Shown here: in pieces, positions 6,965 through 60,529 of the stretch
How the letters are laid out: each line of letters opens with the position of its first letter
Numbering within the stretch: the stretch's first letter is position 1
Origin: Dehalococcoidia bacterium
GTDB lineage: Bacteria; Chloroflexota; Dehalococcoidia; SM23-28-2; RBG-16-64-32
Direction: 5' to 3'
DNA length: 64,000 bases
Assembly (NCBI GenBank): GCA_034408935.1
Contig: DAOUMV010000014.1
Coordinates: 32,564-96,563 of the forward strand
The notes under the pieces: model-generated
Told to the model about the DNA's origin: nothing
Database searches by the model: none
The model's input: the letters and a program-made list of their open reading frames with translations, nothing else
Made by a program: the position numbers and the translations under genes

Positions 6965-7144
6965 GTCCCCCTCCTTTCGGCACGATAGCGTGTCCATCAC
7001 AGCTATGTCAGCACTCTGAGGGGAGAAATCGGACTCATCACATGGCCCCCTCCCTCGTGTCCTTCAACCCGCGCCAAGGGGCTCACACGCTAGCACAACC
7101 TTCGCAAAGGTGTCAAGGGCGGCTGAAGCGCAGGCCCTGCCCCC

Positions 7145-22751: not shown

Positions 22752-23555
22752 ATGCGTAAGCTCACAATAGCGGCGTTACCGGTCGTGGCCGTCCTCGCCA
22801 TCGCCCTGATGATGAGCGGCGGCTTGTCATCGACAGCGCATGCTGCGACTTCGTGCGTCCCAGTCTATGAAGGATGGGTCTGCCTCACCCTGGAGCCGGA
22901 CACCGCCTCCAACCCCGTGGGAACGGACCACACCGTCACGGCGACCCTCACGGGGGGTCCTAGCGAGGCCGAACAGTACGCCTACCTGGATCAGTACATC
23001 GACTTCTCGGTTATGGCCGGCCCCAATGTCGGCGCCATGGAAACGTGTGACCCGGCTGACTGCAAAACGAATGGCGAGGGCAAGGTGACCTTCACCTACA
23101 CAGACGCCGCTGGCGTCGTCGGCGTCTCCGACATAATCCTGGGCTGTCACACCCCGCTGGACTTTGCGACCGGCCAGCTTTCGGTGAGAGAGATACCGGA
23201 GATCTGCGTCGAAGTCCAGAAGGACTGGTTTGAGCCCACGCCTACGCCCACACCCACACCCACATCCACTCCGACGCCGACACCGACACTGACACCCACC
23301 CCCACACCCCCACCCCCACCTGCAGCGACGCCCACGCCCACGCCTACAACCACTCCGGTCGTTCTGCCTGCGGTGCAAACACCCACGCCGACGCCCACGT
23401 CCACGCCCACTCCCGCGGTACTGCCAGTGACCGGCGGCGCGCCCTCCGACGGCAGCTCCAGCGGCCTGACCTGGCTGGCCACCATCGCCGGCGCCATCGC
23501 GGTCATGAGCGCTGGCGGCCTCTGGTTCGCCCACCAGCGAAGGCGCGTCCGATAG
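22752..23555 (+). CDS. LPXTG-anchored cell-surface protein with bacterial Ig-like (Big_1-like) domain and PT-rich linker
   Basis: Signal peptide MRKLTIAALPVVAVLAIALMM...AHA. Big-like TDHTVTATLTGG...VTFTYTD region. (TP)n linker. C-terminal LPVTGG + hydrophobic segment + RRRVR is a sortase sorting signal. SD AAGGGAGG. Confidence 0.75.
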   Translation: MRKLTIAALPVVAVLAIALMMSGGLSSTAHAATSCVPVYEGWVCLTLEPDTASNPVGTDHTVTATLTGGPSEAEQYAYLDQYIDFSVMAGPNVGAMETCDPADCKTNGEGKVTFTYTDAAGVVGVSDIILGCHTPLDFATGQLSVREIPEICVEVQKDWFEPTPTPTPTPTSTPTPTPTLTPTPTPPPPPAATPTPTPTTTPVVLPAVQTPTPTPTSTPTPAVLPVTGGAPSDGSSSGLTWLATIAGAIAVMSAGGLWFAHQRRRVR

Positions 23556-23767: not shown

Positions 23768-23826
23768 TTGACACAGACCCTCCGGTGGTGTAAATACATA
23801 TTAATCTGTAACAAGTGCCTTGTTAC
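23768..23826 (+). promoter_or_regulatory. sigma70-like promoter (TTGACA-17-TAAATA) followed by 8-bp perfect inverted repeat GTAACAAG-tgc-CTTGTTAC in the leader
   Basis: Read directly. The IR at 23808-23826 sits between the predicted TSS and the SD of the 23847 gene. Confidence 0.4.
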
Positions 23827-23846
23827 TACCAATAGGAAGGTCATCA

Positions 23847-24671
23847 ATGTTTCCTGCTCTAAAATTCCCTGCGTTTGCCGGGCTAGGCCTGTTGGCCGCT
23901 GTCCTGGCCGTCGGCCTGGTGATCAGCGGCACCGCTCACGCCGGGATATCTGACCCGCACTGCGTCAACCCGGATATCGAAGTGTGCATCGTCCTGCACC
24001 CGGAGACCGACTCCAACGAAGTGGGTACCAACCACACCGCCACCGCCACCGTCACCGGGGCCGCAGCGGGCACGCAGGTCACCTTCGAGGTCACCAATGG
24101 GCCCAACTTGGGGGACACCGGCACGGGCGCCATCGACGCCAGCGGTCAGGCCACCTTCACCTACACCGGCGACGGCGGCGCCGGCACCGACACCATCCAG
24201 GCCTGCGTCCCGGTACCCGCTCCTGCACCTACACCGACACCCACGTCTACACCTACGGCCACGCCTACAGGTACAGCCACACCCACGCCTACAGCCACGC
24301 CCACGCCTACAGCCACGCCCACGCCCACGCCTACGGCCACACCCACGCCTACACCGACGCCCACGCCTACACCCACGCCTACCGAAATGCCTCAGTTTTC
24401 TCGGCTACCAATAGCGCCCGGGGAGGCAGCAGTAGCAGCGATAGGAGATCTGCCAGGGGCGGCGCAAGCCCAGCAGCCAGCGCAGGCACAGGAAGAGGTC
24501 TGCGACACGGCCATCAAGGTCTGGACGCCGGCCACTCTCCCGGTGACCGGCGGCGCGCCCTCTGACGGCAGCTCCAGCGGCCTGACCTGGCTGGCTACCA
24601 TCGCCGGCGCCATCGCGGTCATGAGCGCTAGCGGCCTCTGGTTCGCCCACCAGCGAAGACACGTCCGATAG
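23847..24671 (+). CDS. LPXTG-anchored cell-surface protein, paralog (Big_1-like domain + long PT linker)
   Basis: Start set at MFPALKFPAFAGLGLLAAVLAV (ATG 23847, SD AGGAAGG). VTFEVTNGPN...ATFTYTGDG Big-like domain. (TPTP)n linker. The C-terminal 45 aa incl. LPVTGG...RRHVR is nearly identical to the first paralog at DNA level. Confidence 0.75.
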   Translation: MFPALKFPAFAGLGLLAAVLAVGLVISGTAHAGISDPHCVNPDIEVCIVLHPETDSNEVGTNHTATATVTGAAAGTQVTFEVTNGPNLGDTGTGAIDASGQATFTYTGDGGAGTDTIQACVPVPAPAPTPTPTSTPTATPTGTATPTPTATPTPTATPTPTPTATPTPTPTPTPTPTPTEMPQFSRLPIAPGEAAVAAIGDLPGAAQAQQPAQAQEEVCDTAIKVWTPATLPVTGGAPSDGSSSGLTWLATIAGAIAVMSASGLWFAHQRRHVR

Positions 24672-29581: not shown

Positions 29582-30931
29582 TCACTCCTGCCACCTGACC
29601 TCGTGCAGCCGTACCGGCTTCTCGAAGCCCTTGAGGGTAGCCTCGCCCTTATCGGCGAAGGCGAAGCCCTTGCCAGCAGCAAGCTGCTGGACGACATCGG
29701 AGACGAGAATCTGTCCCGGCTCAGCGTGGTCGCAGATGCGCTTGGCCAGGTTCACGGCGGTGCCGAAGAGGTCGGCCTCCTCAGCGACGGGCTCGCCCGC
29801 GTTCATCCCGATGCGCACTCTGAGTGGCATGTCGCCTTGTTCGGCGATGGCCCGCTGGACGGCGACAGCGCACTCGATCGCCCGTGAGGCAGAGGGGAAG
29901 GACGCCATGATGCCGTCGCCGGTATGCTTGGTCTCGCTCCCGCCCTGAGCCTTGAGCGCCTCGCGAACGATGCTGTCGTGGGCGCGGCGGAGTTCCTGGG
30001 CCTTGGCGTCACCGAGGCGCTCAGTGAGGGCAGTCGAGGACTCCATGTCGGTGAAGAGGATAGTGGCGAGGCCGGACGGGACGGGTTCAGCGCGCACTTG
30101 AGATTCAGCCTCCATCAGGAAACCGTTGATGGCATCCAGCAAAGGCTTAGTGTCGCCCCACCAGGGCACATGAACGTCGCCTTCTAGTGGCTCAAGCCGG
30201 GCATCGGGAATGAGGGCGGTCATCTCGCGAGCCACGTCGAATGGGCAAAGAATGTCACCTCGGCGGTGGACCACGAGCGTGGGAGCTTGCACCTCCTCCA
30301 GCACGGACGTGACATCCTGTCCGTAGTTGGCATCCATCCAAGTAACGGCGTTCTCCGCGGAAGCCGCCTCCCGCTGCAACTTCGTCAGGAAGGCCACCTG
30401 GGCGGGGTCCCCCGACGGCGCGAAGACTGAGGATATGGCCGCGGACCCGGCGCCCCATGCGGCGCGGACGAGTGCCTTAAAGGGTTCATAAACTTCCGGC
30501 CGGGGGGCCCAGCGATGGTACGATCCATAAAGAACCAGGCGGGAGACACGCTCAGGGTGGCGGGTCGCGTAGACGAGGATCGTGGGACCGCCTTCGGAGA
30601 TACCCATTAAGGCGACCCGTTCTACTGCAAGCGCATCGACCACCGCCTCAAGGTCCCGCAGCTGGCCTTCCATCGAGAGGTCCGGAGCATCCCAGTCGCT
30701 CAGCCCCGTTCCACGCTTGTCCAATCGGACCAACAGGCGCGGCTCGGCGAGCCCCTGCCAGAATGCCCGCGTGTCCGCGTAATCCCACTCGACCTGGAGA
30801 TGGCTCACCCAGCCATGAGCCACCACTAGCGGCGGCCCCTTGCCTGCCGTAGCGTAGGCGATTCGCACACCGTCGGAAGTGGTGCAGAAGCGAATTTGCT
30901 GCTCCATCGGGATGCTCTCCTGGCGGAGCAA
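29582..30931 (-). CDS. alpha/beta-hydrolase domain fused to class III adenylate/guanylate cyclase domain
   Basis: N-terminus VVAHGWVSHL...GISEGG (nucleophile elbow GxSxG). C-terminus ILFTDMESSTALTERLGD...GDGIMASF...RVRIGMNAGEPV...DLFGTAVNLAKRI are class III cyclase catalytic motifs. Alternative start at MEQQIRF (30907). Confidence 0.8.
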   Translation of the reverse strand: MLRQESIPMEQQIRFCTTSDGVRIAYATAGKGPPLVVAHGWVSHLQVEWDYADTRAFWQGLAEPRLLVRLDKRGTGLSDWDAPDLSMEGQLRDLEAVVDALAVERVALMGISEGGPTILVYATRHPERVSRLVLYGSYHRWAPRPEVYEPFKALVRAAWGAGSAAISSVFAPSGDPAQVAFLTKLQREAASAENAVTWMDANYGQDVTSVLEEVQAPTLVVHRRGDILCPFDVAREMTALIPDARLEPLEGDVHVPWWGDTKPLLDAINGFLMEAESQVRAEPVPSGLATILFTDMESSTALTERLGDAKAQELRRAHDSIVREALKAQGGSETKHTGDGIMASFPSASRAIECAVAVQRAIAEQGDMPLRVRIGMNAGEPVAEEADLFGTAVNLAKRICDHAEPGQILVSDVVQQLAAGKGFAFADKGEATLKGFEKPVRLHEVRWQE

Positions 30932-38034: not shown

Positions 38035-39951
38035 CTACTCGCAGCCCGCCCCGAACACCGGCGGCAGCACCGGGAACACGTCCCCCAGGTTGATTAGGCC
38101 GTCCGGTGATAGATCCGCCCGCGGGCTCCAGTCGGCAATGCCATCACCATTCGTGTCGGGGTTCGACGGACTGGAGCCGAAGTACGGCGGGAGCACGCTA
38201 AACAGGTCCGCGAGGTTGATGATCTGGTTATCGTCAAAGTCCGCAGGCCACTTGTCATCCCCCTCATCACCAGGGTTCGCCGTGTCCGCACAGGGGTCCG
38301 CTGGGTCCGTACCGATTACGCCCTCGTCCGTGTCCGTGAACCCGTCGCCGTCGCTGTCGCCGCAGGGGCCGCCAACCACCACCTCGCCGCTCAGCACAGT
38401 GTTCGCCGCGAGCTCAGCGTACCCCGAAGCGGTCCCGGCAACCAGCATGAGGTCCACGTAGCCGTCCTGGCCGCCTAGCGTACTGGGGATGAGGAGCGGG
38501 CTCGTGCCGGTGCCCACAGCCGTCACTGTGATCCTCGCCAGCACGCCGTCCCCGCTCTCGTGGTTGTCCGGGGGAGGTGGGGAGATCGTTCCGTCTGCGG
38601 CCACAAACGTTGCCGAGTTTGGGTTCCACTGCGTGTCGCTATTGGAGAGGAAGCCAGCACCGCCTCTGCTGTCGATGCGAGAGAGGATGGTCACATCGTC
38701 CGGTGGCGTCGAACCGGCCGCGTCGACGTCGATGAAGTCCCAAGAATCCTCATCGATCATGGTATCCAAATCATTGTCAATGAAGTCGACGGGGTCCTCG
38801 TCGATTAGCGTGTCCCCGTCATCGTCAATGCCGATCTGTATCACGGCTGGGTCGTAGTCGATATCGATCTGGTAGCCCTTAATCCTGTCAGCGGGGTCGA
38901 CCCCCTTGATGACGAGATCGAAGGTGTGGGTGTCACCGACAGCGGCGATCTCTCCGCAGTTCTCGATCGTGCCGACGGTGCTGTCGTCGTTGCCCGTGGT
39001 GTCCATGTCGATCGCCACCAGATCGACAGTGCTGAGCGGAGGCGTGGGCGTGGGCGTAGACGTAGGCGTAGTGGGCGTAGGCGTAGGTGTAGGCGTCGGT
39101 GCGGGCGTAGCCGTAGGCGTGGGCGCCGGTGTGGGCGTAGGCGTCGGCGTAGGGGTAGGCGGCGGTGGCGTGGGGACCACGCACGGCTCGCCCACGGACA
39201 CGGCGCCGATCTGCACGGCGTTCACCGGAACGGGCAGGTGCTTCAGTGGCCCGTCTCCAGCCATGAGCATGAGGTCAACGAAGCCATCCTGGCCCCCGGA
39301 GGGCCCGGGAACGATGAGGCCGCTCGTGCCGGTGCCCACGGCCGTCACCGTGATCCTTGCCAGCACCCCCTCACCGCTCTCGTGGTTGTCCGGGGGAGGT
39401 GGGGAGATCGTTAGGTCTGCGGCCACAAACGTTGCCGAGTTTGGGTTCCACTGCGTGTCGCTAATGGAGATGAAGCCAGCACCGCCTCTGCTGTCGATGC
39501 GAGACAGGATGGTCACATCGTCCGGTGGCGTCGAACCGGCCGCGTCGACGTCGATGAAGTCCCAGGGGTCCTCGTCGATCTGGGTGTCCCCGTCATCGTC
39601 GATGGAGTAGGGGTCGACGGGGTCCTCGTCAAACAACGTGTCGCCGTCATCGTCGATGCCGATGCGTATCACGCTCGGGTCGTAGTCGATATCGATCTGG
39701 TATCCAGCGATCTTGTCGACAGGGTCCACGCCCTTGACCACGAGGTCAAACGTATGGGTCTCGCCGACTGTGGACATCTCGTAGCACTGCTCTATCGTGC
39801 CCACCGTGCTGTCGTCGTTGCCCGTGATGTCCATGTCGATGGCCACCAAGTCGATGGCGCCGGGCAAGGCGGCAGTTGAGCGGATCGAAAGCAGCCCAGC
39901 AAACATTGCCAGCGCCGCCAGGCCGGTCAGCAGAAGTCCTGTGTATCGCAT
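38035..39951 (-). CDS. secreted surface protein P1: two tandem cohesin-like modules (each with acidic DDDGD Ca-binding insert) + PT linker + TSP3-like repeat + C-terminal dockerin-like Cys-terminated module
   Basis: MRYTGLLLTGLAALAMF signal peptide. Two copies of VDLVAIDMDTTGNDDSTVGTIE.C...THTFDLV.KGVDP.D.I.GYQIDIDYDP.VI.I...GVLARITVTAVGTGTS (cohesin-like strand pattern). C-terminal DFDDNQIINLADLFSVLPPYFGSS...DTNGDGIADWS...PDGLINLGDVFPVLPPVFGAGCE. Confidence 0.75.
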   Translation of the reverse strand: MRYTGLLLTGLAALAMFAGLLSIRSTAALPGAIDLVAIDMDITGNDDSTVGTIEQCYEMSTVGETHTFDLVVKGVDPVDKIAGYQIDIDYDPSVIRIGIDDDGDTLFDEDPVDPYSIDDDGDTQIDEDPWDFIDVDAAGSTPPDDVTILSRIDSRGGAGFISISDTQWNPNSATFVAADLTISPPPPDNHESGEGVLARITVTAVGTGTSGLIVPGPSGGQDGFVDLMLMAGDGPLKHLPVPVNAVQIGAVSVGEPCVVPTPPPPTPTPTPTPTPAPTPTATPAPTPTPTPTPTTPTSTPTPTPPLSTVDLVAIDMDTTGNDDSTVGTIENCGEIAAVGDTHTFDLVIKGVDPADRIKGYQIDIDYDPAVIQIGIDDDGDTLIDEDPVDFIDNDLDTMIDEDSWDFIDVDAAGSTPPDDVTILSRIDSRGGAGFLSNSDTQWNPNSATFVAADGTISPPPPDNHESGDGVLARITVTAVGTGTSPLLIPSTLGGQDGYVDLMLVAGTASGYAELAANTVLSGEVVVGGPCGDSDGDGFTDTDEGVIGTDPADPCADTANPGDEGDDKWPADFDDNQIINLADLFSVLPPYFGSSPSNPDTNGDGIADWSPRADLSPDGLINLGDVFPVLPPVFGAGCE

Positions 39952-39970: not shown

Positions 39971-42196
39971 CTACTCGCAGCTTGAGCCGAACACCGGCGG
40001 CAGCAACGGGAACACGTCACCGAGGTTGATGAAGCCGTCCGGGACCAGGTCTCTCCGAGGGCTCCAGTCAGGGATGGTATCACCATTCGTATCGGGCACG
40101 TCTGGGCTTGAGCCGAAGTGCGGCGGGAGCACGTTGAACAGGTCGCCGAGGTTGATCAGCGTGCTCATGTCGAAGTCCGACGGCCAGGCGTCGTCCGTCG
40201 GGTCATCGGGGCAGTTGTCCACAGGGTCCGTGCCGACCAATACCTCGACGCCATCGGCGAACCCGTCGTAGTCGCCGTCGCCCTCCAGCCCCAGCACTGA
40301 GACCTTCCCCGCCACGCCGGGGTTGCTCAGGTGTGTGACGTATGCGCGGTTGATCTCGGGGTTGACCGCAATGCCTTCCGCTTGGGGATCGAGGGTGATG
40401 GCGGACGTCACGGTACTGGTCGCCCCATCAATAACCTTGAGCACGCCCGGGCCGGTGGCAGGCCCGTCGGTCACGTAGATGCGATTAGCGGCGGAGTCAA
40501 CGCCGATACCCTGGACAAAGCCCCCACTGGGCTGGTTTGTATCCATCGGCAGAACGGCCAGGACCTCCTCGCTGTCGCCGTCGACCACGGATACGCTCCC
40601 CTGTTCGTACACGTCGGTGGCCACACCGGCCACATAGATGCGATCGGTCAGGGGATTCACGGCCACGGCGGCGGGGTACAGGCCCGAATCCAGAGGGATT
40701 GTTGAGATCACACTGTTAGTGGCACCGTCGATCACTGACATCGAGTCGTCCGCCGCGTTGGCAACGTAGACGCGGCCGGTGATCGAGTTCACGTCGATTC
40801 CGGTCGGGAACCCCCCCACCGCGATCGTGGCCAGCACCGCGCCGGTGCTGCCGTCAACAGCCGCCACGACGTTGTCCACGATACTGGTCGCGTAGACACG
40901 GTCCGTCTCGCTGTTCACGGCTAGGCCAATACCCGCCAGGAAGCTCAGCCCCAGCGGAATAGTGTCGATCACCGCGTATGTAGCTCCGTCTATCACCGAG
41001 AGCGAAGTGGGTGGAAGGCCGTTTCCCACGTAGATACGGTTGGTGCTGGTGTTCACGGCGATGCTCTGCGGCCCGTCCGCCACAGCGATGGTGGTGATGA
41101 CGTCATGAGTTACGCTGTCGATAACCGAGACCGTGTCATCGTGGTAGTTCGCCACGTAGATGCGGTCGTCTTCGGGGTTGACCGCCGCGCCCATGGGCCC
41201 GGCACCCACATCTATCACGTCGATGAGCTGTGGTGGCATCGGCGTCGCCGTTGGCGTGGGTGTGGGCTCCGTGGGCGTAGGTGTGGGCTCCGTGGGCGTA
41301 GGTGTCGGCGTTGGCGTAGGTGTCGGCGTCGTCGTGGGTGTGGGAGTCGGAGTCGGGGTCGGGGTAACGGTAGGTGCCGGAGTCGGGGTCGGACTTGGGG
41401 CGGGTCCCGGGGTGGGCGTGGGAGTGGGCGCGGTGACGACGCACGGCTCGCCCACGGACACGGCGCCGACCTGCACTGTGCTCACCGGAACGGGCGTCCC
41501 CTCCAGTGGCCCATCTCCTGCGATCAGCATGAGGTTAACGAAGCCGTCGTAACCCCCGGACGGCCCCGGAACGATGAGGCCGCTGGTGCCGGTGCCCACG
41601 GCCTCGATGGTGATCCTGGCCAGCACGCCGTCACCGGACTCGTGGTTGGCTGGGGCGGGCGGCGTATTCGTGGCATCGGCGGCCGTGGGCGTGATCGAGC
41701 CGTCGCTATCCGGCATGGGGTCGGCGATGTGGGTTATGGGCACGAAGTCACCGCCGCCGCTGCTGTCTATGCGGGAGAGGATCGTGACGTTGTCGGGTGG
41801 GGTCGAACCCGCGGCGTCAACGTCGAGAACCGAGATGATCTTGATCACGCTCGGGTCGTAATCGATATCGACCTGATAGCCCTTGATCTTGTCGACGGGG
41901 TCGATCCCCTTGACAACGAGGTCAAACGTATGGGTCTCGCCCACTGTCGACATCTCGTGGCACTGCTCTATCGTGCCCACCGTGCTGTCGTCGTTGCCCA
42001 CCGTGTCCATGTCGATGGCGACGAGGGTCACGTCTCCGGGACCGGCCCGGGCGACATCACGTTCACCAAGCAGCGTCGTGAGGCCGAGCACGGTGACCGC
42101 TAGCAGGACGCCCATGAGGAGGGAAGCGAGCACTACTCGTCTCGCGGGGCGGTTCACTACCCCCGACCCCAGCAGCAGCATCCGCAAATATCGCAT
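39971..42196 (-). CDS. secreted surface protein P2: cohesin-like module + PT linker + YVTN-type beta-propeller repeats + TSP3-like repeat + C-terminal dockerin-like module
   Basis: Start set at MRYLRMLLLGSG (M14 of the listed ORF, by analogy with P1 and P3). One cohesin-like module. Repeats of RIYVANYHDDTVSVIDSVTHDVITTIAV type (YVTN family). C-terminal DFDMSTLINLGDLFNVLPPHFGSS...DTNGDTIPDWS...PDGFINLGDVFPLLPPVFGSSCE. Confidence 0.75.
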   Translation of the reverse strand: MRYLRMLLLGSGVVNRPARRVVLASLLMGVLLAVTVLGLTTLLGERDVARAGPGDVTLVAIDMDTVGNDDSTVGTIEQCHEMSTVGETHTFDLVVKGIDPVDKIKGYQVDIDYDPSVIKIISVLDVDAAGSTPPDNVTILSRIDSSGGGDFVPITHIADPMPDSDGSITPTAADATNTPPAPANHESGDGVLARITIEAVGTGTSGLIVPGPSGGYDGFVNLMLIAGDGPLEGTPVPVSTVQVGAVSVGEPCVVTAPTPTPTPGPAPSPTPTPAPTVTPTPTPTPTPTTTPTPTPTPTPTPTEPTPTPTEPTPTPTATPMPPQLIDVIDVGAGPMGAAVNPEDDRIYVANYHDDTVSVIDSVTHDVITTIAVADGPQSIAVNTSTNRIYVGNGLPPTSLSVIDGATYAVIDTIPLGLSFLAGIGLAVNSETDRVYATSIVDNVVAAVDGSTGAVLATIAVGGFPTGIDVNSITGRVYVANAADDSMSVIDGATNSVISTIPLDSGLYPAAVAVNPLTDRIYVAGVATDVYEQGSVSVVDGDSEEVLAVLPMDTNQPSGGFVQGIGVDSAANRIYVTDGPATGPGVLKVIDGATSTVTSAITLDPQAEGIAVNPEINRAYVTHLSNPGVAGKVSVLGLEGDGDYDGFADGVEVLVGTDPVDNCPDDPTDDAWPSDFDMSTLINLGDLFNVLPPHFGSSPDVPDTNGDTIPDWSPRRDLVPDGFINLGDVFPLLPPVFGSSCE

Positions 42197-42292: not shown

Positions 42293-44014
42293 CTACGGCG
42301 TGCAGCTTGAGCCGAACGTCGGCGGCAGCACCATGAACACGTCCCCCAGGTTGATGAAGCCGTCCGGCGCCAGGTCTCGCCGGACACTCCAGTCGATGAC
42401 GCCGTCACCATTCGTGTCGGGGTTCGATGGACTGGAGCCGAAGTACGGCGGGAGGACGTTGAACAGATCCCCGAGGTCGATCAGAGTGCTCATGTCGAAG
42501 TCGCACGGCCAGGCGTCGTCCATCTGGTCATCCGGGCAGTTGTCCACAGGGTCAGTGCCGATGTACGTCTCCGCGTAGTCGTCGTACCAGTCGCCATCGC
42601 AATCCCGGATACCCGGGCATGGGTCGCAGACATCGCCCAGGTTATCACCATCGCCGTCCTCCTGATCCGGATTGACAGCGCCCGGACAGTTGTCGATGTG
42701 ATCCAGGAAGCCGTCGCAGTCCGCGTCAAGCCGGCAGTGCTCGTAAGCCCCCATGTCACAGGCAGCGCTGCCGTTCCCGTCACCATCGACGGGCCGGGCG
42801 ATCCCTCTCTGATCCGCGGCGGGACAGCACGTGTCGTCTCCAGCGTCTATCGCGGGACTGCCCGCCAGGAGAGCGTGGGTCCTGGTAGAACCACCGTTGT
42901 CCTCAAGCGGGCCCATCTGCGGATCCACGTTGCTGAGATCGCCCGTCGCGGTGAAGCCACAGGAACCGTCGCTGTCCAGGTTGTGCCCCTGCGACCAGAC
43001 AACGCCGTCGCAATCGCCTCCCGACGGGTTGGCGCCCACGATGGTATTCTTGGCCATCACGGAGCTGTATGTGGTGTTGTGGATTCCTCCCCCTGCCTGA
43101 CCGGCCGTATTGTCGCTGACCGTCGTGTTCGTGATCGTCAGGTAGGCCGGCACAGCCGGGTCGCACGGGACCTCGGGAGGGCAGAACAACGCTAGGGCCT
43201 GATTGCCGATGCCGCCGCCGTAGGCTCCCGCGTCGGTGGCCGCGTTGCCGCTGACCGTGACATTGGTGAGCGTCACCGCGCCACCCAGGTTGCGGATGCC
43301 GCCGCCGATGCCGTTCGCGCCGGTGACGGTGTTACCGCTGACGGTAGTGTCCACCATCTCAACGTCGCCCAGTCGGTTGTAGACGCCGCCGCCGCCCCCC
43401 CACTCTCCGCCAACCGTGTTGTTGCTCACGGTACTGCTGCCCACCGTCAGCGTCCCGCGGTTCGCTATGCCGCCGCCGCTACCGCCCAACCAGACGACAG
43501 GGTCGTCAGCCGCGTTCCCGCTGACGCTAACGAGGGTGAGCGTGAGCGCTCCGAAGTTGAGGATGCCGCCGCCGTCGCCCACGGTGCGGCCGCCCTGCAC
43601 GGTCACGCCGGTGATCTCCGCCGCGACGGACCCCGTCACGGAAAAGACGCGGTCAATCCCGCCGCCGTCAATGACCGTAGTGTCCGCACCGGCGCCCGTC
43701 ACCGTCAGGTCGTCGGTGATGTCCAGATCGCCGGTGGCTGCGCCACCTTCTGGTACCCCGGTGATACTCAGAGCGTAGATACCAGCCGGAAGGGTGATCG
43801 TATCCGCGCCGGCGTAGGCGTTCGCCTCCTGGATGGCCGCCCGCAGCGTACAATTGCCAGCGCCGTCATCGCAGGCGCCGTCGCCGGGAATCGCATCCAC
43901 GGCATCAGCGGTCGAGTCTACTGTGAACGTTGACGCGTAGGCGTCGTGGCCCCCGCCGACTAGCAGTGTCCCCGCTGCCAGCAGCCCCAACAGGGAAAAT
44001 CGTAAGTATCGCAT
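42293..44014 (-). CDS. secreted surface protein P3: CSLREA-type N-terminal motif + right-handed beta-helix (Gly-rich) repeats + Cys-rich TSP3-like Ca-binding repeats + C-terminal dockerin-like module
   Basis: Start set at MRYLRFSLLGLLAAG. FTVDSTADAVDAIPGDGACDDGAGNCTLRAAIQEANA (CSLREA motif). GGGI/NxxxV beta-helix repeats. DxDxDGxxD Cys-rich repeats. C-terminal DFDMSTLIDLGDLFNVLPPYFGSS...DTNGDGVIDWS...PDGFINLGDVFMVLPPTFGSSCTP. Confidence 0.75.
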   Translation of the reverse strand: MRYLRFSLLGLLAAGTLLVGGGHDAYASTFTVDSTADAVDAIPGDGACDDGAGNCTLRAAIQEANAYAGADTITLPAGIYALSITGVPEGGAATGDLDITDDLTVTGAGADTTVIDGGGIDRVFSVTGSVAAEITGVTVQGGRTVGDGGGILNFGALTLTLVSVSGNAADDPVVWLGGSGGGIANRGTLTVGSSTVSNNTVGGEWGGGGGVYNRLGDVEMVDTTVSGNTVTGANGIGGGIRNLGGAVTLTNVTVSGNAATDAGAYGGGIGNQALALFCPPEVPCDPAVPAYLTITNTTVSDNTAGQAGGGIHNTTYSSVMAKNTIVGANPSGGDCDGVVWSQGHNLDSDGSCGFTATGDLSNVDPQMGPLEDNGGSTRTHALLAGSPAIDAGDDTCCPAADQRGIARPVDGDGNGSAACDMGAYEHCRLDADCDGFLDHIDNCPGAVNPDQEDGDGDNLGDVCDPCPGIRDCDGDWYDDYAETYIGTDPVDNCPDDQMDDAWPCDFDMSTLIDLGDLFNVLPPYFGSSPSNPDTNGDGVIDWSVRRDLAPDGFINLGDVFMVLPPTFGSSCTP

Positions 44015-44164: not shown

Positions 44165-45052
44165 ATGGCCCTCACCCTCGCAGAAGCAGCAAAGCTCTCC
44201 AACGACGTCCTCCTTATCGGCGTCATCGAGACCATCATCAAGGACTCACCCATCCTCCAGCGCATGCCCTTCATCGAGATCGTCGGCAACGGCCTCACCT
44301 ACAACCGCGAGGCCACCGCTCCCTCCGCCGGCTTCTTCGACGTCGGCGACACCTGGACCGAGTCCACGCCCACCTTCACCCAGCAGACCGTCACCCTCAA
44401 GATCATGGGCGGCGACGCTGACATCGACAACTTCCTCATCGCCACCCGCTCCAACCTCCAGGACCTCCAGTCCGCCGTCGTCCAGCTCAAGGCCAAGGCC
44501 GTCCAGCAGCTCTTCGAACAGACCTTCATCACCGGCGACGCCACCACCAACCCCAAGGAGTTCGACGGCCTGGACGAGCTCACCGACCCCTCGCAGGAGC
44601 TCTCGATGGGGGCCAACGGCGGCTCCCTAACCCTCGACAAGCTGGACGAGCTCATCGACACCGTCAAAGGCGGCAAGCCCAGCCTCTTCCTCATGAGCCG
44701 GCGCTCCCGGCGCATCCTCAACAAACTCGCCCGCACCGCCGGCTCCTTCCTGGAGACCGACCGCGACGAGTTCGGTCAGATGCTCCAGTTCTACGACGGC
44801 ATCCCCATCGGCGTCTCCGACTACATCGCCGACGACCAGACCCAGGGCACCAGCAGCGACTGCTCCACCATCTACACCTTCCAGATGGGCGAAGGCGCCC
44901 TGGTGGGCCTCACAGCCCCCGGCGGCCTGCAGGTGGAGCGCGTCGGCTCCTTGGAGAGCAAGGACGCCAGCCGCACCCGCATCAAGTGGTACGCGTCGCT
45001 GGCCCTGTTCAACGCCGTCAAGCTGGCCCGCCTCATCGGAGTACGCCCGTAG
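44165..45052 (+). CDS. phage major-capsid-like protein (putative HK97-fold), family not pinned down
   Basis: 295 aa. MALTLAEAAKLSNDVLLIGVIETIIKDSPILQRMPFIEIVGNGLTYNRE... Size, amphipathic N-terminus and neighbours (connector-like gene downstream, strong hairpin right after the stop) suggest a capsid subunit. Assignment from memory only. Confidence 0.45.
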   Translation: MALTLAEAAKLSNDVLLIGVIETIIKDSPILQRMPFIEIVGNGLTYNREATAPSAGFFDVGDTWTESTPTFTQQTVTLKIMGGDADIDNFLIATRSNLQDLQSAVVQLKAKAVQQLFEQTFITGDATTNPKEFDGLDELTDPSQELSMGANGGSLTLDKLDELIDTVKGGKPSLFLMSRRSRRILNKLARTAGSFLETDRDEFGQMLQFYDGIPIGVSDYIADDQTQGTSSDCSTIYTFQMGEGALVGLTAPGGLQVERVGSLESKDASRTRIKWYASLALFNAVKLARLIGVRP

Positions 45053-45202: not shown

Positions 45203-45775
45203 GTGACCGTCCTCAAGAAGGCCATCATCAAGTCCTACGCCGCCGCCGAGCACAAGGCGACGGTGCAGATCGCCGGCTCCCTCGGCGTCTGGCTGGACGG
45301 CATCCGCGTGGCTACCGACATCCCCGCCGCCGACGTCGTCGCCGGCCGTCAATGCACCGTCCTCTTCCTCGATCCGTCCAACCAGGACGACGCCGTCGTC
45401 ATCACCATCCAGGGCGCTCTGCCCAGCGCTGGTGCCGGCTCCAGCCACGCCCCCATCGGCGCGTGCTACCCAGGCGTCCTATCCGTCTCCACCCCCAACG
45501 CCGTCGCCCCCCAGGTCCCCTACCGAGGCGCCGCCTTTACCATCGACAAGCTCTACTGCCGCCTCGCCGTCGCCCCCCAGCTCCAGGACGCCAAGGTCAA
45601 GATATGGCGCAACGGCACCAGCATGGGCGAAGTCACCATCACCAAGAGCACCAAGGCCGGCGAGCTCGACGTCAACGTCCCCGTCTCCAGCGGCGACTAC
45701 TTCGAGGCCGAGATCACCCAGACCGGCATAACCCCCAACGAAGGCTCCGACCTCGTATGGCTATGCGTTCCCTGA
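45203..45775 (+). CDS. hypothetical protein (phage-structural neighbourhood)
   Basis: 190 aa. GTG start preceded by AGGAGAAG. No motif recognised. Confidence 0.45.
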   Translation: MTVLKKAIIKSYAAAEHKATVQIAGSLGVWLDGIRVATDIPAADVVAGRQCTVLFLDPSNQDDAVVITIQGALPSAGAGSSHAPIGACYPGVLSVSTPNAVAPQVPYRGAAFTIDKLYCRLAVAPQLQDAKVKIWRNGTSMGEVTITKSTKAGELDVNVPVSSGDYFEAEITQTGITPNEGSDLVWLCVP

Positions 45776-46260
45776 CCCTGCGCGAGGCCACCGACGCTGA
45801 CCTCCGCCCCTTCCACGCCCTCGCCATCAAGGTCTGGAGCCAGCTCGGCGTCGCCTTCGACCCTGACTTCGCCCGCTTCCGCCGCATCCGTGACGGCCGC
45901 CACCGCATCGTCGTCCTCTGGCAGGACGACCAGCTCGTCGCCGCCCTCGTCGCCATCCCCATCGCCACCGACCGAGGCCCCGGCTTCGAGATCAAAGCCT
46001 TCGTCGTCGACCAGGACCTCCAAGACAAGACTACCCTCCTCGACGCCCTCAGCCTCTACGCCATGAACATCGCCCTCGCCGAGGGCCGCACCATCGTCGT
46101 CAGCCACCGTCCCCGCCGCATCGCCGGCACCGTCTACGGCCGCGACAAGCTCGGCATGGACACCACCCGGGGCGACGACGCATACATCCACCAGATCGGC
46201 TACGCCCCCGACATGATGGCCCGCATCTTCCAGCGGCACCCCGAATGGCAATTACCCTAG
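45757..46260 (+). CDS. hypothetical protein (phage-structural neighbourhood)
   Basis: Start set at MAMRSLTLREATDADLRPF within the listed longer ORF, whose N-terminal 135 aa are R/H/P-rich nonsense. Overlaps the upstream gene by 19 nt. Confidence 0.4.
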   Translation: MAMRSLTLREATDADLRPFHALAIKVWSQLGVAFDPDFARFRRIRDGRHRIVVLWQDDQLVAALVAIPIATDRGPGFEIKAFVVDQDLQDKTTLLDALSLYAMNIALAEGRTIVVSHRPRRIAGTVYGRDKLGMDTTRGDDAYIHQIGYAPDMMARIFQRHPEWQLP

Positions 46261-47126
46261 TCCACGACTGCGACGTGGAGCGCCGCGCCAGCCCCACCGC
46301 CCTCAACGGCGACTGGCGCGACTGCTACCTCGAAGAACTCGGCGCCAACAACACCCACGACGGCACGCAGATCGCCGCCGGCATCCAGAACGTCGCTGGC
46401 AAGAACTACAACGAGCGCAGGGCCCTGCTCCTCTTCAACCTCACCAAGTTCATCCCCGCCGGTGCCACCATCACCACCGCCGTCTGGCACTTCTACGTCC
46501 TCTCCACCACAACCACCGGCTTCATGACCTTCACCGCCTACCGCATCCGCCGCCACGACTGGAAGGAGGACGAGGCCACCTGGAACGCCTTCAAGGAACC
46601 CTGGGACTCCGGCGACGCCGAGAGTGGGGGCAACAACACGCTCACCGACACCGACAAGTCCTGGACCACCGACGAATGGAAGAACATGTGGGTCCGCATC
46701 ACCGCCGGCACCGGTGCCGGGCAGTTCCGCACCGTCACCGGAAACAACGGCACTACCCTCACCGTAACCCCCAACTGGGCCACCAACCCCGACAGCACCA
46801 GCCTCTACGTCGTCGGCCAGCTCTGGCAAGGCGCCGGCGCCTCCAACACCGCCCAGGACCGCGACCAGTCCGTCTCCGCTGCCCTCGGCCCGCTGAACAC
46901 CACCGGCTGGAAGGCCAAGACCGTCACCGCCCTCGTCACCGACGCCTGGAGCAACCGCAGCGGCATCTGCACCTTCATCGTCGAGCGCACTGACACCCTC
47001 ACCACCACCGTCGGCGAAGCCTACATCGACGCCAAGAACGCCTATCCCTACGCCCCCGAGCGCGTCCACCACCTGCGCGTCACCTACGCCCTCGACGGCA
47101 AGACGTTCCAGGTCATGGTCCGCTAG
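46245..47126 (+). CDS. hypothetical protein (phage-structural neighbourhood), Thr/Asn-rich
   Basis: 293 aa. Overlaps the previous stop. No motif recognised. Confidence 0.45.
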   Translation: MAITLVHDCDVERRASPTALNGDWRDCYLEELGANNTHDGTQIAAGIQNVAGKNYNERRALLLFNLTKFIPAGATITTAVWHFYVLSTTTTGFMTFTAYRIRRHDWKEDEATWNAFKEPWDSGDAESGGNNTLTDTDKSWTTDEWKNMWVRITAGTGAGQFRTVTGNNGTTLTVTPNWATNPDSTSLYVVGQLWQGAGASNTAQDRDQSVSAALGPLNTTGWKAKTVTALVTDAWSNRSGICTFIVERTDTLTTTVGEAYIDAKNAYPYAPERVHHLRVTYALDGKTFQVMVR

Positions 47127-47367: not shown

Positions 47368-48003
47368 ATGAACCTAAGTGACATGCGCGACCGCCTGCGC
47401 AAGGACCTGCACGACGAGGATGCTGCCAACCAGCGCTGGACAGATGCTGAGCTGGACCGCCACATCGGGCGCGCCGTCCGCGAATTCAGCCTCTCGGTGC
47501 CGCTGGAGACGAAGGCCACCCTCAGCGCTACCGCCGATAGCCGTGACCTATCTGTCGCCGGACTTGCCGATCTGGTGGCCATCGAGGCGGTGGAGTACCC
47601 GGTGGGCAACTACCCGCCCTCCTACGTGCCCTTCTCCGTCTGGCTCTCCACCCTCACCATGCTCATCGACTCGCCCCCCGACGCCGTCGAGGATGTCGAT
47701 GTCTACTACACCAAGCTCCATACCCTGGACGCGACGACATCGACGCTGCCCGCGCGGTTCGAGGACGTAGTAGCGACGGGAGCCGCCGCCTACGCCGCCC
47801 TGGAGTGGGCTTCCTTCGCGACCAACCGGGTGAACGTAGGCGGGCAGGACGTCTGGCGCGACTACCTGACGTGGGGCCAACAGCGGCTGGCAGAGTTCCA
47901 GCGGGCGCTGGCCCGCCACGGCCGCCGCAACACCGTCCGCGTGCGGCAGCTCTACCGCGCGGCCACCACGCCCGTGGACCAGTCGACGGTCACGGGGCCG
48001 TAG
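47368..48003 (+). CDS. phage head-tail connector/adaptor-like protein
   Basis: MNLSDMRDRLRKDLHDEDAANQRWTDAELDRHIGRAVREFS. The N-terminus resembles gp6-type connector proteins (hxLEExKxHLRID..DD motif). SD GAAGGGAAT. Confidence 0.4.
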   Translation: MNLSDMRDRLRKDLHDEDAANQRWTDAELDRHIGRAVREFSLSVPLETKATLSATADSRDLSVAGLADLVAIEAVEYPVGNYPPSYVPFSVWLSTLTMLIDSPPDAVEDVDVYYTKLHTLDATTSTLPARFEDVVATGAAAYAALEWASFATNRVNVGGQDVWRDYLTWGQQRLAEFQRALARHGRRNTVRVRQLYRAATTPVDQSTVTGP

Positions 48004-57850: not shown

Positions 57851-58810
57851 ATGAAGCGAAGGATACTCATGAGCCTGCTGGTGATCGGCACCGTGGCGGC
57901 TGTGATCGCCGGGGCGACCACAGCCTACTTTAGCGATACCGAGAGCGCCACCGGCACACTTTCCGCTGGCACAATCGACATCAGGGTAGATGGCCAGAAT
58001 CCCTGGCAAGGCACGTTCCAAATGGCCGATCTTAAGCCCAGTGAGACTGGCCTAATAAACTTCACCATCCGGAACCTCAGTGCCAACCCGGTGGTCGTGT
58101 GGAAGCACATCGGCAACGTTCAGACCAGCGGCGGGGAGCATCCAGAGTCTGAATTTGCCGAGGACCCCAACGACACGATCAACCACATCCACACGGTCAC
58201 AAATTATGACCTGAAGGTGGACAGCACAGTCATTTTCGCCGACGAAGATGGCCTGTCGGTTAACGACATCCGAAGCATGTGGATGCCTCTGGGCACGATA
58301 CCGCCCGGTGGCACTCTCGATGTGGAGCAGAGCTACCACATGCGCGGGGAGGACACCGGCAACTGGGCCCAGGGCGATGTCATGACCTTCGACATCGACC
58401 TGTACGCTGAGCAGGAACTCGGTACTGGACCAGGGCAGCTGTCGCGCAAGCTCTTCCTGGATGACAAGACGGGGGAGCCTGACTGGCACTTCATCGCAAA
58501 CGGCACTTGGGGGCTTCTCAAGTGGGATGCGGCCGGCAACTACAGCTTTGCTGCCCAGGGCCTTACGCCGGGTACCGGCTACACGCTGATTCACTACCCT
58601 GAACCGCAGACAACTTGGCCGTGGCCTGTGAACGCCATTGCCAGCGGGACAAGCGACGCTGGTGGCAAGCTTTCCTTGTCTGGCACGCTGCCGGCGGTGT
58701 CGTCCGGCAAGATTTGGCTCGTTCTCACGAACGACATTGTCGGTGTCTCACTTAGCGGTTGGACCCCGGCTCAGTACCTGTTCGAGTCCCATCTGGTCAA
58801 CATCCCGTAG
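57851..58810 (+). CDS. TasA/camelysin (CalY, peptidase M73)-family protein with SipW-cognate signal peptide
   Basis: MKRRILMSLLVIGTVAAVIAGATTAYFSDTESATGTLSAGTIDI. The AYFSDTE + TGT pattern is the SipW-cognate class signal. SD AAAGGGAGATGGAG. Followed by a SipW gene. Confidence 0.7.
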   Translation: MKRRILMSLLVIGTVAAVIAGATTAYFSDTESATGTLSAGTIDIRVDGQNPWQGTFQMADLKPSETGLINFTIRNLSANPVVVWKHIGNVQTSGGEHPESEFAEDPNDTINHIHTVTNYDLKVDSTVIFADEDGLSVNDIRSMWMPLGTIPPGGTLDVEQSYHMRGEDTGNWAQGDVMTFDIDLYAEQELGTGPGQLSRKLFLDDKTGEPDWHFIANGTWGLLKWDAAGNYSFAAQGLTPGTGYTLIHYPEPQTTWPWPVNAIASGTSDAGGKLSLSGTLPAVSSGKIWLVLTNDIVGVSLSGWTPAQYLFESHLVNIP

Positions 58811-58910
58811 CCCTGGGCGAGGAGGCGACCCAGCAGAAGCAATAGTGGTGTGCGTGGTGGGGGTTCGCTCTGCCTCCGCCACGCGCATCGCCCGCGGTGT
58901 TATCGATGGC

Positions 58911-59471
58911 ATGTCTACTTCCGCGTTCAAACGGCTGATTCGCGTACTGGGGCTGCTCGTCAACGTAGCTGTGACGCTGGCGTTGATCGGCGTCATCCTG
59001 TTCTTTGTGCTGCCCCGCCTTCTCCACTGGGACCTACAGGTGGTCCTCAGCGGCAGTATGGAGCCCGCCCTGCCCGTGGGCTCGGCCATCTTGGTCCGTC
59101 CAGTAGACCCCCAAGCGGTGTCTGCGGGCGATATCATCACGTATCGCCAGCAAGGTTCTCCCAGCTTCGTCACTCACCGCGTGGTGGAGGTCGAGCGCCA
59201 GGGCCCGGCCCTTGGCTTCCGCACCAAGGGAGACGCCAACGAGGATCCCGATAGCTACACGGTGCCAGCCGAGAACGTGGAGGGTCGGGTCTGGGTGGAC
59301 ATTCCATACCTGGGCTATGTGGCCCAGCACGTGCGCGGCTCCTGGGGCTTCCTGCTGTTGGTCGGGGTGCCTGGGGCTATCATCATCGCCGGTGAGGTGT
59401 GGAACATCGTCAGCGTGCTCAGGAAAGGGAAGTCCGGGCAGCTGGACACCCGTCCGGGGAGGGACTCGTGA
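58911..59471 (+). CDS. sipW: signal peptidase I, SipW type (S26B, archaeal/ER-type)
   Basis: N-terminal TM then VVLSGSMEPALPVGSAILV...HRVVEV...KGDAN; S26B SipW pattern with Ser (SGSMEP) and downstream His. Confidence 0.75.
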   Translation: MSTSAFKRLIRVLGLLVNVAVTLALIGVILFFVLPRLLHWDLQVVLSGSMEPALPVGSAILVRPVDPQAVSAGDIITYRQQGSPSFVTHRVVEVERQGPALGFRTKGDANEDPDSYTVPAENVEGRVWVDIPYLGYVAQHVRGSWGFLLLVGVPGAIIIAGEVWNIVSVLRKGKSGQLDTRPGRDS

Positions 59472-60525
59472 GGCCGCACGCCTTGCTCGTGGGGGGTCTC
59501 TTGCTGCTGGTCGCTCTTGCCGTCCTCGTCCTGCCTCGCATCGGCGGCATCTACGGCGTATTCTCGGACACGGAAACGGCAGAGGTCTCCCTCAGGGTGG
59601 CTAGCTCCTTTCCGCCAGCAGAGTGCGGCGGGATGGAGTTCGACAACACGATAACGGGAACGAGCGGGGGCGATAAACTCACAGGCACCAGCGGAAGCGA
59701 CCTCATCTTCGGCCTCGGCGGCAACGACAGGATCAGAGGCCTCGCCGGCGACGACTGCATCGTCGGCGGTGATGGCGACGACAAGATATATGGCGGCAAG
59801 GGCGACGATACCATCGACGGCGGCCCCGGCAGAGACAAGATTTACGGCGGCCTCGGTGACGATACCATCGTTGGCGGCCCCGGCGACGACAAGATATATG
59901 GCGGCCACGGCGACGATGTCATCGACGGCGGGCCCGGCAGCGACAAGTGCAGGGGCGGCTTCGGTGCCGACACGATCACCAACTGTGAGCGGCCCTCTTG
60001 CCCTTGGGGCCTCAGGGCCCAGTTCCACCACTCCGTGCCCACGGTGGACCTGACCTGGCAGGCCGTAGCCGATTCCCTCTACTACAACATATATCGTGGA
60101 ACTGCCAGCGGCGGGCCCTACGAAGGGATCGGCAGCTCCCCCAGACCGTCATATCAGGACGTCAACATAGTCGAAGGGGCAACCTACTACTACGTGGCCA
60201 CGGCTGTGGACGGCGATGAGTTCGAGAGCGGGCCAAGCAACGAGGCGCAAGTAGTGACCCTGGTGGCCGCGCCTTGGGCGGAGCCGACGCCGGCTCCTGA
60301 GCCCACAGGAACACCAGAGCCTATGCCAACGCCAACGCCAGAACCTGCGCCGAACGCTGAGCCCACCGCGACGCCGGTACCAACGCCAGCTCCGGAGCCA
60401 ACTCCAACGCCAACACCGACGCCGAGCCCGGAGCCCACCCCCACGCCGGACGGAACCGCGACGCCACAGTCCACACCTACGCCCGCGGCAGAGCCGACCA
60501 CTACGCCTGAGCCTACACCCGTGCC

Positions 60526-60529
<4 letters not shown>
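59468..60529 (+). CDS. secreted protein with SipW-cognate signal peptide, RTX-like Ca-binding GG.G.D repeats, FN3 domain and PT-rich tail
   Basis: GTG start overlapping the sipW stop (GTGA). IYGVFSDTETAEVSL SipW-class signal. Repeats GGDGDDKIYGGKGDDTIDGGPGRD. DLTWQAVADSLYYNIYRG...YYYVATAVD (FN3-like). (PTPEP)n tail. Confidence 0.7.

Follow-up and report, generated by a model that had tools for sequence, protein, structure and literature searches.

Three adjacent genes with a shared C-terminal module

The stretch of DNA analyzed here (64,000 nucleotides from a Dehalococcoidia bacterium, hereafter the window) carries three adjacent minus-strand genes whose products, called P1, P2, and P3, end in closely similar modules. 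Each protein terminates in LPPxFGxxC followed by only one or two residues (P1 ...VLPPVFGAGCE; P2 ...LLPPVFGSSCE; P3 ...VLPPTFGSSCTP). An earlier interpretation made without database searches, referred to here as the sequence-only reading, had drawn attention to this ending and proposed that it might represent a new class of C-terminal sorting signal instead of a dockerin. The shared ending is real, and the resemblance greatly exceeds what chance would give: pairwise identity among the three proteins is 69-75% over their final 100-105 residues, and a profile of the module matches 1,228 proteins. The proposed signal class is not supported, and the module itself is best read as a divergent dockerin.

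The P1 gene (38035..39951, minus strand) is an open reading frame (ORF) for 638 amino acids, and its product is identical to the database protein P0009. A signal peptide beginning with MRY is followed by a cohesin domain, a Pro/Thr linker, a second cohesin domain, and a C-terminal module that joins a TSP3 repeat to a dockerin-like region. The P2 gene (39971..42235, minus strand; 754 amino acids) encodes an N-terminal hydrophobic segment, one cohesin domain, a Pro/Thr linker, a YVTN beta-propeller (TIGR02276, E = 6e-32), and the module. The P3 gene (42293..44038, minus strand; 581 amino acids) encodes a signal peptide, a CSLREA N-terminal domain, a beta-helix region, a domain that NCBI names choice-of-anchor Q, TSP3 repeats, and the module. 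A scan of NCBIfam models matched P3 to NF041518 (E = 3.4e-25) and TIGR04214.

An N-terminus beginning with MRY had also been noted as an atypical feature that accompanies the C-terminal ending. P1 indeed begins at MRY, and the same residues lie 13 (P2) and 8 (P3) codons inside the longest ORF, corresponding to codon 14 of P2. The alternative starts are at 42196 for P2 and at 44014 for P3, where the sequence reads MRYLRF. The MRY codon is the likelier start, at least for P3, because P0007, a database protein, starts at MRYLRF and from there on has the same sequence as P3, and because 13 of the ~94 full-length representatives of the family start with MRY. However, the MRY stretch is an ordinary signal-peptide n-region and is uncoupled from the module.

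Architecture of the module

The three ranges originally highlighted (38035-38250, 39971-40190, and 42293-42510) each correspond to the last ~71 codons of a gene plus its stop codon. The conserved unit is larger, and begins ~35 residues farther upstream at a TSP3-like sequence, DxDGFxDxxExxxGTDPxDxC. It occupies 38038..38352 in P1 (residues 534-638), 39974..40273 in P2 (residues 655-754), and 42296..42598 in P3 (residues 481-581), all on the minus strand. The Pfam model TSP3_bac matches the P1-P3 modules with E-values from 1.7e-4 to 0.1, and the TSP3-type repeat ends in a second conserved cysteine. This residue is Cys554 in P1 (codon 38290..38292), Cys675 in P2 (40211-40213), and Cys501 in P3 (42536-42538). 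A Trp-Pro motif and two calcium-loop repeats follow, each repeat ending in LPPxFG, and the module closes with the terminal cysteine, which is Cys637 in P1 (codon 38041..38043; followed by Glu), Cys753 in P2 (39977-39979), and Cys579 in P3 (42302-42304). The P3 module has an extra cysteine, Cys512, inside a WPC version of the Trp-Pro motif.

LPPxFGSS had been regarded as a tail that comes after the dockerin-like segments. Instead, it is present twice in every module (P1 residues 587-594 and 629-636), with the cysteine following the second copy alone. Each of two dockerin-type calcium-loop repeats has LPPxFGSS as its C-terminal half, and their duplicated unit is D-F-D-x-N-x-x-I-N-L-x-D-L-F-x-V-L-P-P-x-F-G-S-S.

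Column conservation was evaluated by aligning 148 complete module copies to the family profile with hmmalign. The cysteine at module position 21 (Cys554 of P1) is invariant (148/148), and that at position 99 (Cys637 of P1) is present in 143 of 148 copies, the exceptions being five gaps that the alignment leaves around a WGxTC variant. The Trp-Pro motif is nearly as well conserved (W30 in 142 copies, P31 in 145). The predicted calcium ligands are also strongly retained, both in loop 1 (D33 in 148, D/N35 in 130, N/D37 in 129, N/D41 in 143, and D44 in 147) and in loop 2 (D75 in 140, D/N79 in 139, N/D83 in 139, and D86 in 147). Both loops have the 1-3-5-9-12 ligand spacing of EF-hands and dockerin F-hands.

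An AlphaFold2 model of the P2 module places a short helix after each loop, shorter than the canonical helices. The P1-P3 modules and about one sixth of the family carry an additional EF-hand-like DTNGDG loop (PDTNGDGIxDWS) between the two dockerin repeats, with the PDTNGDGI segment located at approximately 38119-38142, 40055-40078, and 42380-42403 on the minus strand. This loop may form a third calcium site.

Homology to dockerins

Comparison of the family profile with PDB sequences identifies a dockerin, 2y3n_B, as the best match (E = 3.9e-4), followed by the dockerins 8ajy_B and 2b59_B. Among 95 full-length family members, 29 match the Pfam Dockerin_1 model at E <= 1e-3 (best 1.3e-41), and other Pfam matches include TSP3_bac (34), TSP_3 (30), and Cohesin (12). 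When ten members were checked, the Dockerin_1 match fell on the F-hand part of the module and exceeded the 22.9-bit cutoff in nine, and TSP3_bac covered the first ~20 module residues in most of them. The model of the P2 module, built from a 46-sequence alignment, has a predicted local distance difference test score (pLDDT) of 86.7 and a predicted template modeling score (pTM) of 0.69. A Foldseek search of the PDB with this model returned dockerins as seven of the eight top matches, all of them weak (3kcp_A, 2b59_B, 4wi0_B, 5g5d_B, 5m0y_B, 2ozn_B, and 5k39_B). The module is therefore best regarded as a divergent subfamily of dockerins outside the coverage of the curated models, which P1-P3 themselves fail.

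The closest known relatives are the type I dockerins (PF00404) of non-cellulosomal cohesin-dockerin systems. The module shares with type I dockerins its two tandem ~22-residue F-hand repeats with calcium ligands at positions 1, 3, 5, 9, and 12, its usual location at the C-terminus of diverse secreted enzymes, and the presence of cohesin-fold domains encoded alongside. Unlike type I dockerins, it is preceded by a fused TSP3 repeat and bracketed by a pair of invariant cysteines, its post-loop helices are shortened by the conserved LPPxFG, and it has no link to cellulose degradation. The P1-P3 copies differ further in carrying the DTNGDG loop and in failing PF00404.

The module is also close in concept to the GC-type dockerin of NCBIfam model NF041540 ("GC-type dockerin domain-anchored protein"), which is likewise a dockerin-type C-terminal domain and is named by NCBI as an anchor. 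The NF041540 domain ends in Gly-Cys, and the P1 module, a weak match, can be aligned over the whole length of the model (positions 2-67 of 67), as far as the ...AGC of P1. Only two of the 95 family members match NF041540 at E <= 1e-3, and the P2 and P3 modules do not match it. The module is a subfamily apart from NF041540 and lies outside the coverage of that model. We found no paper on a "GC-type dockerin" in the literature.

Cohesin domains and candidate partners

The two cohesin-fold domains of P1 are encoded by 39175..39864 (domain 1; ~residues 30-259) and 38356..39036 (domain 2; ~residues 306-532), and that of P2 by 41435..42040 (residues 66-267), all on the minus strand. P1 matches the Pfam Cohesin model (E = 2.2e-8; 34.8 bits versus a cutoff of 24.1), with the best-matching stretch, residues 336-494, falling in domain 2, and domain 1 is homologous to the modeled P2 domain. 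The P2 domain gives a confident AlphaFold2 model (pLDDT 87.8, pTM 0.87), for which every one of the top 50 Foldseek matches in the PDB is a cohesin (best E = 3.5e-8); among them is 2xdh, a non-cellulosomal cohesin of Archaeoglobus. A highly acidic insertion of ~45 residues (IGIDDDGDTLFDEDPVD...DEDPWDFIDVD) is present in both P1 cohesins, whereas the P2 cohesin lacks it.

In all, the three genes of the cluster thus specify three cohesins (two in P1 and one in P2) and an equal number of dockerin-type modules. Cohesin genes adjoin module genes at two other loci (L010 and L027), a third locus (L002) has a cohesin-like region within the module protein, and, as noted above, a cohesin is present in 12 of the 95 module proteins. 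The passengers on other module proteins include S8, M23, and M10 peptidases, beta-helix proteins, GSDH, and CAP domains. Such diverse secreted enzymes are the pattern expected of dockerin-borne cargo.

The same passengers are compatible with another explanation, wherein the module would be a calcium-dependent adhesion or matrix-binding domain that recognizes a wall polymer, an exopolysaccharide, or some other non-cohesin ligand, and the cohesins would be unrelated passengers. TSP3 and EF-hand repeats are found in matrix proteins, and for many dockerins outside cellulosomes no cohesin partner is known. The passengers are many and unrelated, and the fraction of module proteins with a cohesin is small. 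In addition, one end of a 276-kb contig (L008:1-8800) carries seven tandem secreted-protein genes, of which five are cohesin-like and homologous to the P1 and P2 cohesins. All seven proteins have transmembrane/basic tails, some with LPRTG or LPPTG, and no dockerin-type module was found within 15 kb. Against this explanation stand the concentration of three cohesins and three modules in one three-gene cluster, the cohesins associated with module genes at the other loci, and the resemblance of dockerins on varied enzymes to the cellulosome pattern. For these reasons, we judge a non-cohesin ligand to be unlikely and favor docking of the module onto cohesins.

Distribution and position of the module

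An exhaustive HMMER search of 1.84 billion representative proteins with a nine-sequence profile yielded the 1,228 matches mentioned above at E <= 1e-3, with 221 at E <= 1e-10 and 16 at E <= 1e-30. Thus, the module is not restricted to the three paralogs in the window. A word-indexed search with a single module found only six metagenomic fragments, all ending in Cys plus 1-2 residues, and a search of genome contigs found four short contigs of metagenome-assembled genomes from one study. No further copy was detected elsewhere in the window by a six-frame scan with the hidden Markov model, and no relatives were found in viral contigs.

Position within the protein was counted in the 149 best representatives. 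A total of 127 copies (about 78%) end within 12 residues of the protein C-terminus, where the commonest tails after the cysteine are TP (44) and T (22). The 36 other copies are internal, N-terminal, or tandem, and all 36 retain the cysteine. The module directly follows the signal peptide in P0010, P0013, P0029, P0104, and P0145, whereas P0053, P0044, P0058, and P0120 carry tandem arrays in which the next domain directly follows the cysteine of an internal copy. At least two copies are present in 17 proteins, and every carrier has a signal peptide or an N-terminal anchor. Module genes are clustered together at three loci (L006, L007, and L021), although the L006 and L007 contigs are full of frameshifts and are uninformative on partner genes.

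On a low-GC (43%) contig of 846 kb, the module ends an 872-residue protein (L022:5670-8288) that has GYWLVASDGGIF repeats and an N-terminal anchor resembling those of the candidate phyla radiation (CPR). CPR-like N-termini also occur in several other family representatives, and the module therefore spans distant lineages. A 436-residue secreted protein encoded in the window (5690-7000, minus strand) has GYWFVASDGGIFAFGDAxFYGS repeats and no Pfam match, and this repeat is shared with the L022 protein and with the module-bearing protein P0080.

A conserved pair of cysteines

The terminal cysteine is matched by a second, just as invariant cysteine 78 residues upstream, whether the module copy is terminal or internal. 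All cysteines of P1 fall into pairs that bracket domains (C56/C257 for cohesin 1, C332/C530 for cohesin 2, and C554/C637 for the module), as do those of P2 (C92/C265 for the cohesin and C675/C753 for the module). The cohesin pair is conserved as well, with C28 invariant and C201 nearly invariant in an alignment of the domain (A4). Additional module cysteines are occasional and appear only as pairs (56+81 and 57+80). Furthermore, 78 of the 94 full-length representatives contain an even number of cysteines over the whole protein (binomial p = 6e-11). A cysteine at module position 2 was considered as evidence for pairing within the module and was rejected, as its partner is apparently upstream in an NCP motif.

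The invariant partner and the even counts favor a structural disulfide over a free cysteine that is lipidated or cleaved. On the basis of these sequence patterns, the simplest reading is that the two invariant cysteines form an intradomain disulfide. In cellulosomal dockerins, the two termini interact non-covalently in an "intramolecular clasp" that stabilizes the domain (Slutzki et al. 2013, PMC3821032); the clasps described are stacking contacts, and that report does not mention disulfides or cysteines. The module would resemble these dockerins in having an end-to-end contact that stabilizes the calcium-bound fold, and like them it has a conserved Trp-Pro (W30, P31) just before loop 1. It would differ in that the predicted clasp is a disulfide and takes in the TSP3 repeat. 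Such a covalent clasp may compensate for the helices shortened by LPP.

Alternatively, the terminal cysteine could participate in an intermolecular disulfide with a cohesin or another module, yielding covalently locked docking or multimerization. Its position at an exposed chain end would suit this role, and every cohesin domain here has conserved cysteines. However, there is one conserved pair per domain and the counts are even, so intradomain pairing explains all of the cysteines, and in the tandem internal copies the next domain follows directly after the cysteine. We therefore regard intermolecular bonding as highly improbable and retain the intradomain disulfide.

Anchoring and sorting signals

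The sequence-only reading emphasized the absence of a transmembrane helix or basic tail after the cysteine, and this is correct for P1-P3, which have only 1-2 residues there. The contrast it drew with LPXTG and PEP-CTERM proteins in the window stands in part. Two paralogous small secreted proteins (22752-23555 and 23820-24671, plus strand) have Pro/Thr linkers and near-identical LPVTG, transmembrane, and HQRRR endings, but a simple scan of the window revealed no PEP-CTERM protein.

The LPPxFGSSC ending was likened to MYXO-CTERM, and could in principle be a new sorting signal whose cysteine is lipidated, cross-linked to the S-layer or cell wall, or located at a site of enzymatic cleavage. The near-terminal cysteine is invariant, and most copies of the module lie close to the C-terminus. 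An invariant cysteine near the C-terminus of secreted surface proteins is the sole feature shared with MYXO-CTERM-type signals. The MYXO-CTERM signals, like the JDVT-CTERM and Synerg-CTERM signals and those of CGP-CTERM, are composed of a short motif with an invariant cysteine, a transmembrane segment, and an Arg cluster, and such cysteine-containing signals are cleaved by CPBP-type myxosortases (bioRxiv 10.1101/2023.06.07.544157; PMC11980579). The module lacks the transmembrane helix and Arg cluster that define these tripartite signals, is a folded domain of 100 residues rather than a short motif, and also occurs internally. Similarly, LPPxFG resembles LPXTG only superficially, being repeated within the domain and lacking a transmembrane or basic tail.

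Other observations bear on whether the module acts as an anchor in some other manner. Homologs of the P2 cohesin (n = 23) are mostly ~300-residue proteins with a single cohesin. Thirteen end in a transmembrane helix plus RRRR (one with LPPTG before it), five end in the Cys-terminated module, and the remainder are truncated or have other ends. Related cohesin proteins at L008 and in P0226 carry an LPxTG-like motif, a transmembrane helix, and a basic tail, and the cohesin-bearing ScaE of Ruminococcus flavefaciens is a known example of LPXTG/sortase anchoring (PMC3821032). Because homologous cohesin proteins swap the module for a transmembrane or LPXTG tail, it is plausible that the module serves as an anchor by docking. 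The choice-of-anchor Q domain of P3 is in keeping with such a role. In this respect the original proposal retains some merit, but the mechanism of a processed tag is unsupported.

A protease or transferase gene co-distributed with the signal had been suggested as a possible partner. A Pfam census of 43 neighboring proteins at 17 loci found sortase in two cases and PD40 and FG-GAP in three cases each, and no recurrent protease or transferase, although this is a weak negative given the short contigs. The two sortase genes are within a few kb of module genes at L001 and L017 (2 of 17 loci), no homolog of either is encoded in the window, and sortase was rejected as a partner of the module.

Several findings thus speak against a processed signal: the missing transmembrane helix and Arg cluster, the equally invariant partner cysteine and even cysteine counts, the identity of the motif as one half of a duplicated dockerin repeat, and the lack of a recurrent enzyme among the 43 neighboring proteins. 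The 36 copies that are internal, N-terminal, or tandem and yet keep the cysteine largely refute this idea, since a domain with N-terminal and mid-chain copies cannot be a C-terminal signal of the sortase, exosortase, or myxosortase type. The analogy does receive some support from the anchor swap, the P3 anchor domain, and the two nearby sortase genes. Overall, we consider a cysteine-based sorting signal to have very little chance of being correct.

A proposed docking model for P1-P3

The cysteine-terminated tail is best explained as the end of a divergent calcium-binding dockerin that docks, most likely, onto cohesins from the same gene cluster, and not as a cleaved or lipidated tag. We consider this explanation probable on the basis of the domain boundaries and internal repeats, the conservation of calcium ligands and cysteines, the relationship to dockerins, the fold of the cohesin domains, and the way the module is distributed.

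In this model, the terminal cysteine would end an extracellular domain of ~100 residues composed of a bacterial TSP3 calcium-binding repeat and a divergent type-I-like dockerin, whose two F-hand repeats are each followed by a short helix that LPPxFG cuts off. After Sec export, the domain would fold around Ca2+, and the two invariant cysteines would form a disulfide tying the ends of the domain together as a covalent form of the dockerin clasp. The folded module would then dock non-covalently onto the two cohesins of P1 and the one of P2. P1, the beta-propeller protein P2, and the beta-helix protein P3 could thereby assemble as a surface complex. Homologous cohesin proteins in related organisms are tethered through LPXTG or transmembrane tails.

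Some observations weigh against this model. The P1-P3 modules do not match Pfam Dockerin_1 even at E <= 10, and P1 alone matches NF041540, weakly (E = 0.031; 14.7 bits versus a cutoff of 29). The Foldseek matches of the module model have E-values of 0.076-3.5, with none at or below 1e-3, and root-mean-square deviations of 2.5-3.6 angstroms over 54-67 columns. The presence of a cohesin and a module on one protein would lead to self-association if the two are cognate, and cellulosomal scaffoldins usually avoid self-association. The preference for the extreme C-terminus, with 0-2 residues after the cysteine, is compatible with a terminal function but does not require one. Finally, Cys21 and Cys99 are both invariant, and therefore the pair offers no covariation test.

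Genomic context

The genes for P1-P3 lie within a prophage remnant. On one side, the plus strand encodes a major head protein (44165-45052; phrog_212, E = 2.5e-73), p190 (45203-45775), a CBM96-like protein (46245-47126), and an SU10-type adaptor (47368-48003). On the other side, a 658-residue phage protein (35524-37500, minus strand) is encoded directly after P1 and has 34 relatives in IMG/VR, most of which align to it over almost all of its length. No portal or terminase was seen in the remnant. In the viral contigs that carry the 658-residue protein, the capsid, adaptor, and 658-residue protein genes are collinear, which implies that an insertion and an inversion occurred in the window. None of the 34 viral contigs carries a module or cohesin gene. 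In two metagenomic loci (L016:298-4391 and L020:243-4352), a module-bearing protein of ~940 residues is encoded directly before a close homolog of the 658-residue protein, as is P1 in the window.

At another locus, a gene for a fusion of an alpha/beta-hydrolase with an adenylate/guanylate cyclase (L013:3471-4817) adjoins a module gene. Its N-terminus resembles, by eye, that of a fusion of the same type in the window (29582-30931, minus strand), and this sequence likeness hints at partial synteny between related organisms. The window also carries a cluster of secreted-protein genes at 57851-60529 (plus strand), which encode a camelysin/TasA-like protein (57851-58810), a weakly matching S26/SipW-like signal peptidase (58638-59471), and an RTX-repeat protein carrying a long Pro/Thr tail (59399-60529).

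Implications

A broader proposal, which we put forward tentatively, is that the module exemplifies an uncurated subfamily of disulfide-clasped TSP3-dockerins with ~1,200 clusters at 50% identity, found both in Chloroflexota-like lineages of high GC content and in a CPR-like genome of low GC content, and interchangeable on surface proteins with LPXTG or transmembrane anchors. Many carriers of the module also have a cohesin and could therefore polymerize head-to-tail into a self-assembling surface lattice, and in the window this cassette would lie amid structural genes of a prophage remnant.

The analysis removes a false lead, as there is no new cysteine-based sorting pathway here. It also reveals that Pfam Dockerin_1 and NCBIfam dockerin_GC miss a large dockerin subfamily, and consequently its members are annotated as hypothetical proteins. 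If the cysteine pair is a disulfide clasp, it would represent a natural covalent form of dockerin stabilization that could be of interest to those who engineer cohesin-dockerin scaffolds. The exchange of the module for LPXTG or transmembrane tails on the same cohesin proteins offers a concrete model, open to testing, of non-cellulosomal surface display by uncultured bacteria.

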